From an uncultured bacterium (GTDB taxonomy: Bacteria > Krumholzibacteriota > Krumholzibacteriia > JACNKJ01): DNA of 64,000 bases. Location: positions 2,560,001 through 2,624,000 of the forward strand of contig CAVOFT010000001.1 of the NCBI GenBank assembly GCA_963695095.1. Reading direction: 5' to 3'. Numbering within the stretch: the stretch's first letter is position 1; each line of letters begins with the position of its first letter. Made by a program: the position numbers. Shown one piece after another: positions 42,001 to 45,000 of the stretch.

Positions 42001-45000
42001 GCGCGCCCTGGAGGAGGCGAAGCAGGGTGGTCTTGCCGGCGCCGTTGCGCCCCAGCAGGCAGATGCGCTCGCCGCGCTCGATCTGCAGCTGGACGCCGTC
42101 AAGGAGGAGCGGCCCGCCCAGGGCGAGGGAGACGTGCTTGAGGTCGACGAGGGCCATGGCGGCAGAAGGTAGAGCAGCGCGCCGGACGGGGCAAGCGACC
42201 CCTCGGGTGGAATGTAGCCGGCACCGCAGTCCAGCCGCTTGCGGACGCTGCGCTCGCGGCACTCGCCAATGCAGCCCTCAACGAAGCAGGAGCAGCTTCT
42301 GGTTCGCCTGCAGGCCCGCACCCTCCAGCCGCGCGAGGTAGAGCCCCGTTGGCTGCGCGCGGCCGCTGTCATCCTCGCCGCGCCAGATCAGCTCGTGGTG
42401 CCCTGCGCCGCGGGCCTCGTCGAGCAAGGTCGCGACGCGCCGCCCCGCCGCATCGTGGATGCTCAAGCGCACCCACGCGCCCTCGACGAGCGTGAAGCTC
42501 AGCGTGCTGGCCGGATTGGCCGGATTCGGCCAGGGCGCTTCCAGCCGCAGCCTTGCCGCCGCGAGCGACGGGGCCGCCACCGCGTTCGGCAGGCCAATGA
42601 ACAGGTGCACCAGGCCCTGGTTCGAGCCGACGAGCAGATCCTGGCGGCCATCCCCGTCCCAGTCCCAGGCGAAGGGGCGGGACCGGCCCTGGTCGCCGAG
42701 GTCGATGGGCTGGCTGAGGCTCTCGCAGTGCCCGCCCGCGCCGAAGGCCGGCGCCGCGTGGCTGCCGAGATTGCGATAGAAGTACAGCTCGCCTTCGGAG
42801 TTGCCGCAGATGAGATCCTTGGCGCCGTCGCCGTCGAAATCGGCCACGGAGGGACTCGAATAGCCCAGCGGCACGACGAGCTGGCCGTCGCCGTCCGCGA
42901 TGTAGAGCGTGTGCCGGAAGTCCGGCGGCAGGCCGCCGCCCTCGTTGTAGTAGAGGCGCAGCTTGCCGTCGATGGAGCCCACGAGCAGGTCGAAGCGGCC
43001 GTCCTCGTTCCAGTCCACGATGCAGGGGGTTGCCCGGCCACCCACCGAGATGTCGAACTTGCCTCCGGACGGCCCCACCTGCACGCGGGCGCCGGTGTCG
43101 AAGAGCGGCGCCTCGGCCGTGCCCACGTTGAGGTGGATGTAGACGAAGCCGTCGCTCGTGCCCAGGATCAGATCGGGGAGTTCATCGTCGTTCCACCGCG
43201 CGACGCGCGGCGCCAGGCCCAGGCATCAGCCGCCGGGGTAGTTCAGTTCCCCGGCCGTGGTCTGGAGAAAGCTGAAGTCGCCGAAGCTCGGCGGTCCCGC
43301 CAGACCCTCATTGAGGTAGAGGCGCACCTTGCCGGGGATGAGCCCGCTCCCCTCGCCGACGAGCAGGTCGACGAAGCCGTCGCCATCGAGATCCGCGAGG
43401 CAGGGCACCGAGTGACCGTCGACGATGAGCGTCTCGCCGTGGGCGGGCAGGTCCTGCTCGGCAGCAAACTGGATGAAAGCCGCTGCGGGAGCGGCTGCCA
43501 CCAGGACTGCCAGCGTCAGGAGTGCACGAACTCCAATCATTCCTCAGCCTCCTTTCGCCGATCCGCCGATCGACCGACCGAGTATAGCATCTGACGAATG
43601 GCTGAGGCTTCCCCAGGTTCAGAAATGTGCTAGACTGCCTGGCGGGGATGGCGGACCGGCGCTTGCAGCCCCGGGTCCGCCGCGGAGGGGAAGCCGATGC
43701 GCGAGAGGCTGCTGCTTGGTCTGCTCTGGCTGGTCGCCGCGACGGCGGCCCTCGCCCAGGCCCCGCTCCCCTCTGCCCTGCTCGACGCGCCGCTGGCCCG
43801 CCTCGGCCATGCCGACAGGGCCAGCCTGCGCGAATTCCTGGGCCCCGATTCGACCCTCGTCCTGATTCTCTGGAACACGGACTGTCCCGATTGTCTCGAG
43901 AATGTCGCCGAGGCCGGAGCCCTCGCGGCCACGCTCCCCTCGCTCCGCGTGCTCGGGGTGATGGACGACGCCGATCCCTGGGATGCGCTGGCTTTCGCCG
44001 AAGCGCGCGGCCTCGACTTCCCGAACCTCCACGATCCCGGCGGGCTCTTCGCCACCGCCCTCGGCACCGAGGGCAGCAGCTTCTCCTTCGCCCTGCTGGA
44101 TGGCGCTGGCGGCCTGCTCGCGCTCGCCGTCGACAAGCAGCCCGATGCGGCCGCCGCCCTTCGCGCCGCGCTGGCCGCCCTGCCCGCTGCGGCGCCGGTC
44201 GGAACCGCGCCCAGACCGGGCGAAGCTGCGGCGCAGGCGCCCGCGGCCGCACACTTCCCGCTCGTGAGCGGCAGCGGGCAACTCCGTCTCGCCGCCCTGG
44301 CCGTGGGCCTCGAGGACCGCCTTGGCGAGGGCCCCTGCCCTGGCGAGCCCGCGCTCTGCGCCTGCAGCCTGGGCGGCGCCTACGGAGAGGACCTGCGGCC
44401 GCTGGCCGATGTCCTCTTCCGGCTGCGCTACGAGCTCGTCGCCCAGCTCTCGCCCCGCCTGCGCGCCGGCGCCTTCCTGCGCCTCAGCAACGAGCCCGTC
44501 GCGCTGCTCGCCCAGGGCCCCGAGTACCTCTCGAGCGAGCGCGGCAGCGCCTTCGCGGAGTATGCGACCGGCGCCTGGTCGGCGCGCCTGGGCTGGACGG
44601 CCCTGCACTTCAGTCCGCTCACCCTCCAGCGCTGGGACTTCGCGGACAATCCGCCCGTCGCCGGCACCGGCGGGGCCGGCGGCTGCGGCGCTTGCGGCGC
44701 CACCAGCCACGCCCTGGCGCTCGAGGCCCTGGACGAGCTGGGCCCCGAGCTCACGGTCGAGGGCCTGCGCCTGCAGGGCTCACCGCGTCCCTGGCTGAGC
44801 GCCACCCTCGCCTATGCCCGCCCGCGCCGCGCGCAGGCCTTCGACGCCAATGCCGATCCACCCTTCGCCTATCGCCAGGATCTGCTCGCGGGCCGGCTCG
44901 CGCTGCGGCCCCCGCTGGGCCGCGGCCGGCGCGCGACGCTCGCGCTCCACTACGTCGCCGCCAACGAGGACGGCGGCTCCGCGCGCTGGCCGCTCTACGC

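Follow-up and report, generated by a model that had tools for sequence, protein, structure and literature searches.

The minus strand of the window (the whole 64,000-nucleotide stretch of DNA analysed here, from an uncultured bacterium of the phylum Krumholzibacteriota) carries a gene that, judged from its sequence, very probably encodes a single secreted selenoprotein of 420 residues, with a Sec–Cys dyad, a five-bladed β-propeller and a C-terminal sorting tail (estimated probability about 0.85). Positions 42281–43540 (minus strand) form one frame of 420 codons, in which the sole in-frame TGA is codon 105 (43226–43228), and the frame terminator is an ordinary TGA stop (42278–42280, minus strand). 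Two ORFs, of 104 residues (43226..43540, minus strand) and 282 residues (42278..43126, minus strand), share this frame. A preliminary description had joined these two calls into one secreted protein of 420 residues, and this is borne out by the common frame, the single TGA between them and the homology on both sides. The TGA was also correctly placed (43228–43226, minus strand) within a YPGG-U-C-LG motif; with TGA read as U the translation is 420 residues long, and its single recoded codon, U105, stands in the context ...ELNYPGG-U-C-LGLAPRVARW.... UGA105 is almost certainly a genuine Sec codon, as the comparative evidence below indicates. The features of the locus are as follows.

42278..43540, minus strand: whole gene, 420 codons plus the terminal TGA, merging the calls of 104 and 282 residues; homologues align across the TGA over residues 1–420.
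43478..43540, minus strand: predicted signal peptide, residues 1–21, MIGVRALLTLAVLVAAAPAAA, with a putative cleavage site at A-x-A before F22, read from the sequence.
42581..43474, minus strand: predicted five-bladed FG-GAP β-propeller, residues ~23–320, from Pfam and an AlphaFold2 model.
43226..43228, minus strand: Sec codon UGA, residue 105, first position of the dyad; 5 of the phylum's 21 homologues, and another 25 loci outside it, have TGA at this column.
43223..43225, minus strand: Cys106 codon UGC, second position of the dyad; Cys or Sec at this column in 89 of 89 retained members.
43194..43212, minus strand: bSECIS hairpin with an 8-bp stem CGCCGCGC/GCGCGGUG and apical loop GUC (43202–43204), from folding and covariation.
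42281..42532, minus strand: putative C-terminal β-sandwich sorting domain, residues ~337–420, of the T9SS type-A/FlgD_ig kind, from a FlgD_ig match and a TIGR04183 match below cut-off.

Among 101 genomes of the phylum, the genome itself (G000) included, 21 long matches were found in 18 genomes, 14 with exactly one TGA and seven with none, these last having Cys. An earlier sample of 31 genomes had given 11 matches (seven with a TGA, four without), and the larger sample agrees with it. The reported occurrence of U or C in two adjacent columns is likewise reproduced, the dyad being UC in five homologues, GU in nine and GC in seven. A scan of all species genomes, from which 80 relatives were kept out of at least 377 confirmed, added relatives in genomes labelled as at least eight further phyla. 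The 79 scanned loci read GC (30), UC (25), GU (12), CC (2) or another x-C (6) at the dyad, and the remaining four, unalignable at this site, were dropped. After deduplication 89 sequences were retained, 45 of them Sec forms (30 U-C and 15 x-U) and 44 with Cys only, two of which are C-C. Sec forms are present in genomes labelled WOR-3, Planctomycetota, Verrucomicrobiota, Lentisphaerae, Calditrichota, Ignavibacteriota, Aegiribacteria, Nitrospirota, Gemmatimonadota and Eisenbacteria. In all 45 the TGA is at the same or the adjacent codon, and it is always the sole in-frame stop of the stretch examined. Column 106 is C or U throughout the 89 sequences and is the only Cys-rich column that they all share. 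The slide of Sec by one residue between genera, which the preliminary description held against its own reading, is real but is not a weakness: the site is a dyad in which both positions swap Sec and Cys (U-C, C-C, G-U, G-C). Other two-chalcogen motifs are found in the same loop (C-x-G-C in 17% of sequences, and also C-G-U, U-P-C and C-C); a lone Cys or Sec occupies the site in ~36 of the 89 members.

Homology does continue past the TGA, as had been claimed. The 35 codons that follow the dyad are under purifying selection (dN/dS 0.06–0.64, six pairs), about as strongly as the parts on either side. Conservation extends over the 33 codons that separate the TGA from the downstream GTG start; with U read as C, residues C106, P111, R112, D119, D123, G127 and G131 are invariant in 21 sequences. 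A quick IQ-TREE tree of the 89 distinct sequences requires at least 13 changes of state, and among its well-supported sister pairs are some whose only difference is Sec versus Cys (e.g. L048/L052). Its deep branches are U-C, and Sec may therefore be ancestral, with later loss to Cys or a shift by one residue on many occasions. Column 292 (RPFxC-DW) has a Cys in 45 of 57 single-site forms as opposed to 5 of 32 dyad forms. This Cys was considered as a partner for the site and set aside, because the split follows the tree and because the repeat register puts the residue in strand 1 of blade 5, at the end with the Ca loop, on the face opposite to that of the dyad.

A hairpin follows the UGA and its stem is kept in Sec forms; the version first proposed, CCGCGCG-N-CGCGCGG with a one-nucleotide loop, is however impossible. 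The stem CGCCGCGC/GCGCGGUG has 8 bp, including one G-U pair, and closes a GUC triloop; it starts 13 nt, and the loop 21 nt, after the UGA, with an energy of −14.8 kcal/mol in a 26-nt window and −13.4 kcal/mol in a strict scan. Nor is the exact palindrome common to all Sec forms, as had been stated for a first set of six, since it is present in only 3 of the 14 from the phylum (G000, G006 and G093); in the remaining 11 the stem persists with other letters or with its 3′ arm shifted. The legend to Fig. 2 of a 2026 review (PMC13188914) gives, as criteria for a bacterial bSECIS, a loop of 3–9 nt with G in its first two positions, a stem of 4–16 bp, a spacing of 16–37 nt and an MFE of −7.5 kcal/mol or lower. 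On all four published criteria the G000 hairpin lies within range (GUC loop, 8 bp, 21 nt, −13.4 kcal/mol), and it is in the same register as the WOR-3-type hairpins. The strict scan, which disallows bulges, is passed by 28 of 45 Sec forms versus 3 of 44 Cys forms (median best hairpin −8.5 versus −2.3 kcal/mol); most of the 17 Sec forms that fail have a 4-bp upper stem and a bulge. Within the phylum, the mean local fold is −10.6 kcal/mol for the 14 Sec forms and −4.8 kcal/mol for the seven Cys forms, and the Arg codon of the 5′ arm is CGC in 14 of 14 as against 3 of 7.

Covariation points the same way. In 16 sequences 87.5% of cells are paired, and in 10 sequences 97.1%, with six of seven pairs changed on both sides; none of 500 shuffles reaches the observed values and slid controls are 17–48% paired, controls that flatter the result because the structures were derived from the very sequences counted and these are related. 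Synonymous recoding gives a mean z of −1.24 for the 45 Sec forms versus −0.38 for the 44 Cys forms; for G000 alone the test is not significant (z −1.21, 12% of recodings folding equally well). Over 64 nt the fold is no better than shuffles (z +1.15), and over 45 nt the MFE fails to tell Sec and Cys forms of the wide set apart (−15.3 versus −15.1 kcal/mol, p 0.38). Both are swamped by G+C content and were for this reason replaced by the position-specific hairpin tests. The SECIS hairpin appears to have been rebuilt from different codons in different lineages.

The genome of the bacterium contains selC, selA, selB and selD, each above its curated cut-off: tRNA-Sec with anticodon TCA (71.9 bits), SelA (429.8 bits), SelB (336.8 bits, or 362.1 bits with the rest of the frame added) and SelD (342.4 bits). 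SelD itself contains Sec, its own TGA lying at the known GG-U-xxK site and being followed by a hairpin. SelA is present in 99 of the 101 genomes of the phylum; outside it, SelA is above cut-off in all 10 tested genomes with a U form versus two of five with Cys forms only. In this genome TGA does not serve generally as a sense codon: it is the terminator of the gene under study, and no internal stop occurs in SelA, SelB or 16 other matches. Synthesis would follow the canonical bacterial route, for which all parts are in the genome. The ribosome would meet UGA105, SelB carrying Sec-tRNA(Sec) would bind the downstream hairpin (stem at +13 nt, loop GUC at +21 nt), and Sec would be inserted, with translation continuing to the true stop.

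On the read-through protein, the three Pfam domains named in the preliminary description all score above their cut-offs: FG-GAP_3 (76.9 bits, cut-off 26.9), FG-GAP (53.8 bits, cut-off 22.1) and FlgD_ig (33.4 bits, cut-off 27). NCBIfam offers no selenoprotein model, as was also noted there; its only matches, FusH (38 bits), T9SSA_dep_M6i (28.5 bits) and FlgD (22.9 bits), fall far short of their cut-offs. The AlphaFold2 model (mean pLDDT 85.4) has five four-strand blades, each with a DxDxDG-type loop (D50–D58, R115–D123, D176–D184, D234–D242 and D293–D301). VIA-align finds five-bladed propellers as the best matches (Z 17–18.4, r.m.s.d. 3.3 Å, ~245–247 residues aligned); five-bladed glycoside hydrolases of the GH43/GH32 type share the blade geometry (Z 18.4) at ~10% identity, and Pfam assigns no GH family to the read-through protein. 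Against the PDB, Foldseek returns generic integrin-α and BBSome propellers (E ~1e-8, TM 0.33–0.38) as well as FG-GAP lectin-like propellers such as UmbA4. The propeller is predicted to have five blades and not the seven-bladed integrin-α-like architecture. The N-terminus is modelled as a low-confidence helix (residues 2–15), and all 21 aligned homologues have hydrophobic N-termini.

The T9SS sorting domain ascribed to the tail is likely by homology; the direct TIGR04183 match is under the cut-off (19.4 bits versus 23, E 7.4e-4, model positions 2–70 of 72). Tails of other G000 proteins, which do pass TIGR04183, match this one at E 1e-21 to 1e-23, and several homologues carry a precomputed PF18962 annotation. 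The protein is likely a T9SS cargo, because the sub-threshold direct match is joined by homology to paralogous tails that pass the model. The genome has 126 TIGR04183 matches and a SprA translocon over cut-off (532.5 bits); a PorV-like match (112 bits) falls short of its cut-off of 250. For a Cys homologue, the nearest Atlas clusters consist only of FG-GAP plus Por_Secre_tail proteins, and in Planctomycete relatives PEP-CTERM or dockerin Pfam domains replace the T9SS tail. The signal peptide would carry the protein over the inner membrane, the body would fold as a five-bladed FG-GAP propeller, probably binding Ca2+, and the sorting domain would most likely pass it to type IX secretion for display on the cell surface or release.

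In the model, Sec105 and Cys106 would sit in the loop leading into the innermost strand of blade 2, and the strand order suggests that they are on the ‘top’ face of the propeller. In the usual propeller topology the inner-strand entry loops form the face and axis used for ligand binding or catalysis. Sec would be the reactive nucleophile and Cys106 its partner, and the two could join in a vicinal selenenylsulfide. The role that we favour, at somewhat less than even odds, is that of a centre for redox chemistry or chalcogen transfer on a substrate outside the cell; that we know of no extracellular reductant counts against it, as do the lack of a conserved neighbour in 88 loci and the members with a lone Cys or Sec (~36 of 89). 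It is possible, though doubtful, that the protein is the first β-propeller selenoenzyme, an ancient and widespread extracellular module of anaerobic sediment, digester and groundwater bacteria, in which a vicinal Sec–Cys pair at the mouth of a five-bladed Ca2+ propeller would catalyse extracellular chalcogen chemistry, with polysulfide or elemental sulphur, disulphides, peroxides, or selenium or arsenic species as examples of what it might act on. The surroundings of the gene were compared in 88 loci, where clustering of ORFs of at least 100 residues gave no conserved neighbour, only the gene itself and antisense shadow ORFs. A redoxin-like divergent neighbour recurs in four close loci only of the 88.

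Explanations in which the UGA is not Sec (two separate genes, a pseudogene broken by a nonsense codon, or a leaky stop that receives a standard residue such as Trp, Cys or Arg) are very improbable. They would fit the storage of Sec forms in public protein collections as truncated proteins of 282–314 residues and the frame breaks in neighbouring genes, which show that errors do occur in this assembly; those defects, however, are frameshifts, whereas here the frame is unbroken. They also sit badly with a TGA at the same or adjacent codon in 45 distinct sequences from many phyla and Cys instead in 44, with the conservation of the 33 codons up to the GTG start under purifying selection, with a hairpin specific to the TGA forms, with the restriction of U forms, among the genomes tested for SelA, to those that have it, and with the ordinary use of TGA as a stop. 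Among sequencing runs looked up for the locus, none of RNA was listed, and the best DNA run contained 0.07 of the sampled words.

The functional alternatives accept the selenoprotein. The main rival to redox chemistry is that the Sec–Cys pair holds a soft metal or metalloid (Hg, Cu(I), Cd, As(III)), or else an organometallic compound, with high affinity and no redox cycling, the protein being an extracellular trap, sensor or delivery module; we regard this as a tentative proposal, on balance unlikely. Adjacent CU or UC motifs are listed mainly for metal-related families, namely CopZ-like GxUC, SaoL, HgcA, SaoC and MbdU, the last a metal-binding double selenoprotein (PMC13188914, Table 1), and a preprint by Haft argues that CU motifs, some of them facing the extracellular milieu, interact with an atom of a heavy metal. 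Variants C-x-G-C and C-C are likewise classic metal-binding motifs, and no reductase partner is encoded nearby in the 88 loci. Yet the same loci show no conserved neighbour for metal resistance or transport, Pfam and NCBIfam give no match to a metal-binding domain family, and the members with one Cys or Sec only at the loop (~36 of 89) would be poor chelators alone. A purely structural role, in which a fixed selenenylsulfide or disulphide involving position 106 stiffens the loop and the real function (carbohydrate binding or hydrolysis) resides in other residues, is improbable. The resemblance of the fold to five-bladed glycoside hydrolases (Z ~18) and to FG-GAP lectin-like propellers such as UmbA4 would suit it, as would the dockerin or PEP-CTERM tails of relatives, which are usual in carbohydrate-active systems of the cell surface. 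Against it, the hydrolases share ~10% identity with the protein and no GH family matches in Pfam, column 106 is the one Cys-rich column of the whole family, and the cost of Sec is seldom paid at a purely structural site; according to the review, most selenoproteins use Sec in redox motifs (PMC13188914).

Read as a secreted Sec–Cys propeller, the gene and dozens of its relatives regain, once the Sec codon is recognized, a signal peptide and the first two blades, and the family adds an entry to selenoprotein search sets. Known bacterial selenoproteins are mostly intracellular thioredoxin-like redox proteins. An exported propeller, probably displayed by T9SS here and by PEP-CTERM or dockerin elsewhere, would imply selenium chemistry on the surface of poorly known, mostly uncultured phyla. 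The two adjacent positions, each switching between Sec and Cys, constitute a natural experiment. In the strictly conserved Cys/Sec, a large FG-GAP family without assigned function gains a likely active site and a concrete residue to mutate.

The 2026 review lists 119 families and subfamilies of bacterial selenoproteins (PMC13188914, Table 1), and BSepDB counts 111 (PMC13326102). The assertion that no FG-GAP selenoprotein family is on record agrees with the former, where none of the 119 has FG-GAP/VCBS repeats or any β-propeller. A propeller selenoprotein is equally absent from the BSepDB text that was searched (PMC13326102) and from Table 1 of PMC13188914, within the extent of these sources; a groundwater-MAG survey (its ref. 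66) could list the family. On its sequences, then, this is a selenoprotein family spread across many bacterial phyla and new with respect to the published lists checked. The listed families are defined by the same kind of evidence as is given here: a UGA in frame, homologues with an aligned Cys, TGA homologues from other Sec-using organisms, a hairpin resembling bSECIS, and the Sec machinery of the genome. Most of those families are thioredoxin-like and cytoplasmic or periplasmic, unlike a secreted propeller. The CopZ-like proteins (GxUC) and SaoL, HgcA, SaoC, MbdU and KCU-star (CU) likewise place Sec beside Cys and have all-Cys counterparts, and SaoC and SaoB are exposed outside the cell. Their folds are unrelated; here U-C is in a propeller loop and Sec is alternatively the second residue (G-U); the propeller gene moreover has no neighbourhood link to metal or organometal systems in the 88 loci.

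Thioredoxin reductase carries a vicinal pair in its C-terminal Gly-Cys-Sec-Gly, which can form an eight-membered selenenylsulfide ring that shuttles electrons. That pair is C-U, on the flexible C-terminal tail of a cytosolic flavoenzyme reduced by NADPH; the propeller protein by contrast has U-C in an internal loop, is secreted and has no flavin domain in Pfam. To our knowledge the nearest precedent for adjacent chalcogens in a propeller is found in the PQQ-dependent methanol and alcohol dehydrogenases, Ca2+-containing β-propellers with a vicinal Cys-Cys at the central active site of the top face. These enzymes have eight blades and tryptophan-docking motifs, need PQQ and lack Sec, and the Pfam and NCBIfam scans gave no sequence or family match to them. 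The integrin α-type and T9SS-cargo FG-GAP/VCBS propellers have the same FG-GAP_3/FG-GAP repeats with DxDxDG loops; the present protein differs from them in its five predicted blades, instead of the usual seven, and in the Sec/Cys dyad conserved in the loop before blade 2.

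Read with TGA as selenocysteine (Sec, U), window 42281-43540 (-) encodes a protein of 420 residues with one recoded codon, U105, in the context ...TTAGELNYPGG-U-C-LGLAPRVARWNDDELPDLILG..., and an ordinary TGA stop closes the frame. The two gene calls of the preliminary description are indeed one frame split by a single TGA, and its read-through product of 420 residues with one U is reproduced. The features of the gene are:

43226..43540 (-), ORF of 104 aa, in the same frame as the 282-aa ORF
43228-43226 (-), in-frame TGA, codon 105
43194-43212 (-), bSECIS hairpin, 8-bp stem CGCCGCGC/GCGCGGUG with one G-U pair, loop GUC
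42278..43126 (-), ORF of 282 aa, in the same frame as the 104-aa ORF

The Pfam domains first reported for the read-through protein, FG-GAP_3 (76.9 bits), FG-GAP (53.8 bits) and FlgD_ig (33.4 bits), each score above their cut-offs, and an NCBIfam scan of the same protein again finds no selenoprotein model. In the 21-sequence alignment of phylum homologues, the 33 codons from the TGA to the next start codon hold six invariant residues (P111, R112, D119, D123, G127 and G131), and dN/dS over the 35 codons after the dyad (residues 105-106) is 0.06-0.64 in six sequence pairs, much like the flanking parts. The stretch after the TGA is therefore translated, which excludes two separate genes.

The Sec gene itself has no frame break. 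The adjoining ABC-F type ATPase gene [window 40358-42262 (-), two ABC_tran domains, 130 bits] looks frameshifted: its first ~445 residues lie in one frame and are followed by low-complexity text, while the true C-terminal part (MLDEPTNDLDLETVELLEEQ...) is in another frame, ORF 40369-40866 (-). This break is either an assembly indel error or a broken gene. A large upstream gene [window 37478-39894 (-)] is split over the overlapping frames 39073-39894 and 37478-39751; as the second apparent frameshift in 5 kb, this split is a hint of indel errors in the 2-contig assembly.

The genome (3.64 Mb, 2 contigs) is able to make selenoproteins. It holds a tRNA-Sec (71.9 bits; called tRNA-SeC, anticodon TCA, by ARAGORN), SelB (336.8 bits, rising to 362.1 when the rest of the frame is included), SelA (429.8 bits) and SelD (342.4 bits). 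The SelD (G000:C1:69142-70107, L012) is a selenoprotein itself, with one TGA at the classical ...SAGG-U-SAK... site and a hairpin, GGGUCC-GGA-GGACCU, beginning 11 nt past the UGA. TGA does not serve as a general sense codon in this genome, since no internal stop occurs in SelA, SelB or 16 further matches to the domains of the query. SelA scores above cut-off in 99 of 101 phylum genomes, in 10/10 tested genomes of other phyla with U forms and in 2/5 tested genomes with Cys forms.

[quoted passage not shown] 2 legend). A strict scan that disallows bulges passes 28 of 45 Sec forms (in-frame TGA) versus 3 of 44 Cys forms (no TGA), with a median best hairpin of -8.5 versus -2.3 kcal/mol; in most of the Sec forms that fail, a 3-nt bulge separates a 4-bp upper stem from a 3-bp lower stem. 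In the phylum's 14 Sec forms the 26-nt window has a mean folding energy of -10.6 kcal/mol, against -4.8 in its 7 Cys forms (Mann-Whitney p 1.8e-4, uncorrected for relatedness), and the 5'-arm Arg codon is CGC in 14/14 versus 3/7. In the PRVVDA subgroup the 5' arm is unchanged but pairs with a 3' arm that lies two codons later, and the loop is GGUCG. In other phyla the hairpin is built from different codons (UCCACA...UGUGGA, AUCGCA...UGCGAU, UCCGCA...UGCGGA). Both helix sets were drawn from the same, related sequences in which pairing was counted: an 8-pair helix is 87.5% paired in 16 sequences of the other-phyla type, with A-U/G-C exchanges at three pairs, and a 7-pair helix is 97.1% paired in 10 sequences (WOR-3 type, this genome and G006 of the phylum), with both sides changed at 6/7 pairs. 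None of 500 column shuffles reaches the observed pairing in either set, and sliding the partners by 1-3 columns leaves 17-48% of cells paired. When the 14 downstream codons are recoded synonymously, the mean z is -1.24 in 45 Sec forms and -0.38 in 44 Cys forms (p 3.7e-4); for this gene alone z is -1.21, which is not significant. Its 64-nt fold is not below shuffles (z +1.15), and the 45-nt MFE does not discriminate Sec from Cys forms in the wide set.

Of 101 phylum genomes searched, this one included, 18 contain long matches (E <= 1e-64; 21 in all), and the remaining 83 match solely via the C-terminal tail or single repeats. Exactly one in-frame TGA is present in 14 long matches and none in 7; wherever present, it occupies one or the other of two neighbouring alignment columns. 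The site reads G-G-U-C in five homologues (G000, this genome; G006, G015, G001 and G004), G-x-G-U in nine and G-x-G-C in seven, which are all the Cys forms; position 106 does not vary if U is counted as C. G001 and G004 hold a Sec (U-C) copy as well as Cys (G-C) copies (L022:1501-2760, L022:2852-4114, L044, L045, L016), two Cys copies standing in tandem in G004, so that a single cell can have paralogues of both the Sec and the Cys kind. A wider pattern scan from alignment A3, with one genome per species, confirmed at least 377 relatives, and 79 loci were kept.

Residues at the dyad site in the 79 loci of the wide search
GC, 30
UC, 25
GU, 12
CC, 2
SC, 2
TC, EC, DC and PC, 1 each
Other residues, 2
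Not mappable, 2

Seven of these loci duplicate the phylum set and were removed; the non-redundant set (n = 89) comprises 30 U-C, 15 x-U and 44 Cys-only members. The U forms carry depositor labels of WOR-3, Planctomycetota (Pirellulales, Phycisphaerae), Verrucomicrobiota, Lentisphaerae, Calditrichaceae, Ignavibacteriaceae, Aegiribacteria, Nitrospirota, Gemmatimonadota, Eisenbacteria and Krumholzibacteriota, some plainly unreliable. Three loci labelled 'uncultured Fibrobacteraceae' or 'Patescibacteria group' (L047, L053, L060) are the same contigs that the genome search assigns to the window's phylum, under G093, G088 and G053. L104 and L111, labelled Verrucomicrobiota and Lentisphaerae, are almost identical, with branch lengths of 0.044 and 0.065. 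Host range should not be read from the taxon labels of these MAGs.

The preliminary description rightly saw Sec in two adjacent columns but listed the slide by one residue as a weakness. The all-cysteine counterpart of U-C exists in two C-C forms (L114, L122), and the slide is therefore a dyad (U-C, C-C, G-U or G-C) with Sec and Cys exchanging at both positions. A quick maximum-likelihood tree requires at least 13 state changes and contains well-supported sister pairs differing solely in Sec versus Cys (e.g. L048 GC and L052 GU, support 99). Its deepest clades are U-C; being midpoint-rooted, it does not give the direction of change. Position 106 is the sole Cys-rich column found in all 89 members. 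A second Sec/Cys directly precedes it in 32, C-x-G-C occurs in 17%, and C-G-U, U-P-C or C-x-x-x-C in single members; about 36 have a lone Cys/Sec at the site. A Cys in RPFxC-DW of blade 5 (alignment column 292 of P0001) is present in 45/57 single-Cys/Sec members versus 5/32 U-C/C-C members, a split that is probably phylogenetic; the window protein has Trp there (W292).

An AlphaFold2 model from the 21-sequence alignment (mean pLDDT 85.4, pTM 0.71) has a low-confidence N-terminal helix (the putative signal peptide), five four-stranded blades from residue ~40 to ~315 and, after a disordered linker (320-329), a beta-sandwich at the C-terminus. The propeller [window 42581-43474 (-)] thus has five predicted blades versus the seven usual for this repeat family. 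A DxDxDG-type loop, a motif that binds Ca2+ in integrins, follows the first strand of every blade. Foldseek retrieves integrin-alpha and BBSome propellers (E ~1e-8, TM just 0.33-0.38); exhaustive structural comparison ranks the five-bladed propellers GH43, GH32 and GH62 top (Z 17-18, ~245 residues, rmsd 3.2-3.5 Å, ~10% identity), which confirms the five blades of the model, not kinship. In the model the dyad lies four residues ahead of strand 110-114, the first and innermost of blade 2, with the DxDxDG loop after the strand. In FG-GAP propellers such as integrins the strand-1 entry loops form the ligand-binding face and the Ca loops the opposite face, so the dyad should lie near the propeller axis on the functional face.

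By eye, the N-terminal sequence (MIGVRALLTLAVLVAAAPAAA/F) resembles a Sec signal peptide. Over nearly the full model length, the C-terminal 101 residues match TIGR04183 (T9SS type-A sorting) at 19.4 bits (cut-off 23, E 7.4e-4), and they match other tails of this genome that do pass (E 1e-21 to 1e-23). SprA is present (532.5 bits, above cut-off), as is a PorV-like protein below cut-off (112 bits versus 250). The genome holds 126 TIGR04183 matches and a 2199-aa SprA-like frame; these tails make a very large predicted T9SS cargo set for 3.6 Mb. In Planctomycetota homologues, PEP-CTERM (PF07589) or dockerin (PF00404) domains replace the T9SS tail, consistent with an extracytoplasmic protein that exchanges its sorting signal from one phylum to another.

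No conserved neighbour gene was found across 88 loci, so gene context is no help to function. The divergent neighbour at window 43697-45667 (+) encodes 656 aa with an N-terminal hydrophobic stretch, an AhpC/TSA-redoxin-like domain (26.9 bits, C-P-D-C motif) and then ~500 residues without a Pfam match; it adjoins the selenoprotein gene in only four closely related loci.

Cys/Sec motifs of the kind seen at the site mark thiol/selenol redox centres or soft-metal sites. Most selenoproteins of unassigned function have redox-type motifs, and adjacent CU/UC motifs in Table 1 of a 2026 review belong mostly to metal-related families (PMC13188914); the Haft preprint associates CU motifs with the chemistry of heavy metals, extracellular cases included. 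On this evidence we prefer a reactive Sec105 with Cys106 as partner in a selenenylsulfide-forming centre, at a probability of about 0.45. Binding of a metal or metalloid by the dyad, to which the CU/UC families and the preprint point, ranks next as a rather doubtful alternative, and a purely structural dyad is improbable. In public protein collections the Sec forms are truncated entries of 282-314 aa, annotated either as 'hypothetical protein' or as 'T9SS type A sorting domain-containing protein', and the Cys forms are 'FG-GAP-like' or 'VCBS repeat-containing protein'.

A full-text literature search, with the groundwater-MAG survey (ref 66 of PMC13188914) and bioRxiv supplements outside its scope, returned neither an FG-GAP selenoprotein nor selenocysteine together with VCBS. 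The full Table 1 of the 2026 review (119 families/subfamilies; PMC13188914) has no FG-GAP, VCBS or propeller entry, and PF13517, PF01839, PF13860 and PF18962 are absent from its domain identifiers. FG-GAP, VCBS and propeller terms are likewise absent from the text and one supplement of BSepDB (111 families), and the deep-Sep paper describes its three 'hypothetical' families as without conserved domains. The predicted selenoprotein family is real, apparently undescribed and widespread among mostly uncultured phyla. Its mechanism of Sec insertion is ordinary; what is unusual is the fold, the location and the two-position dyad.
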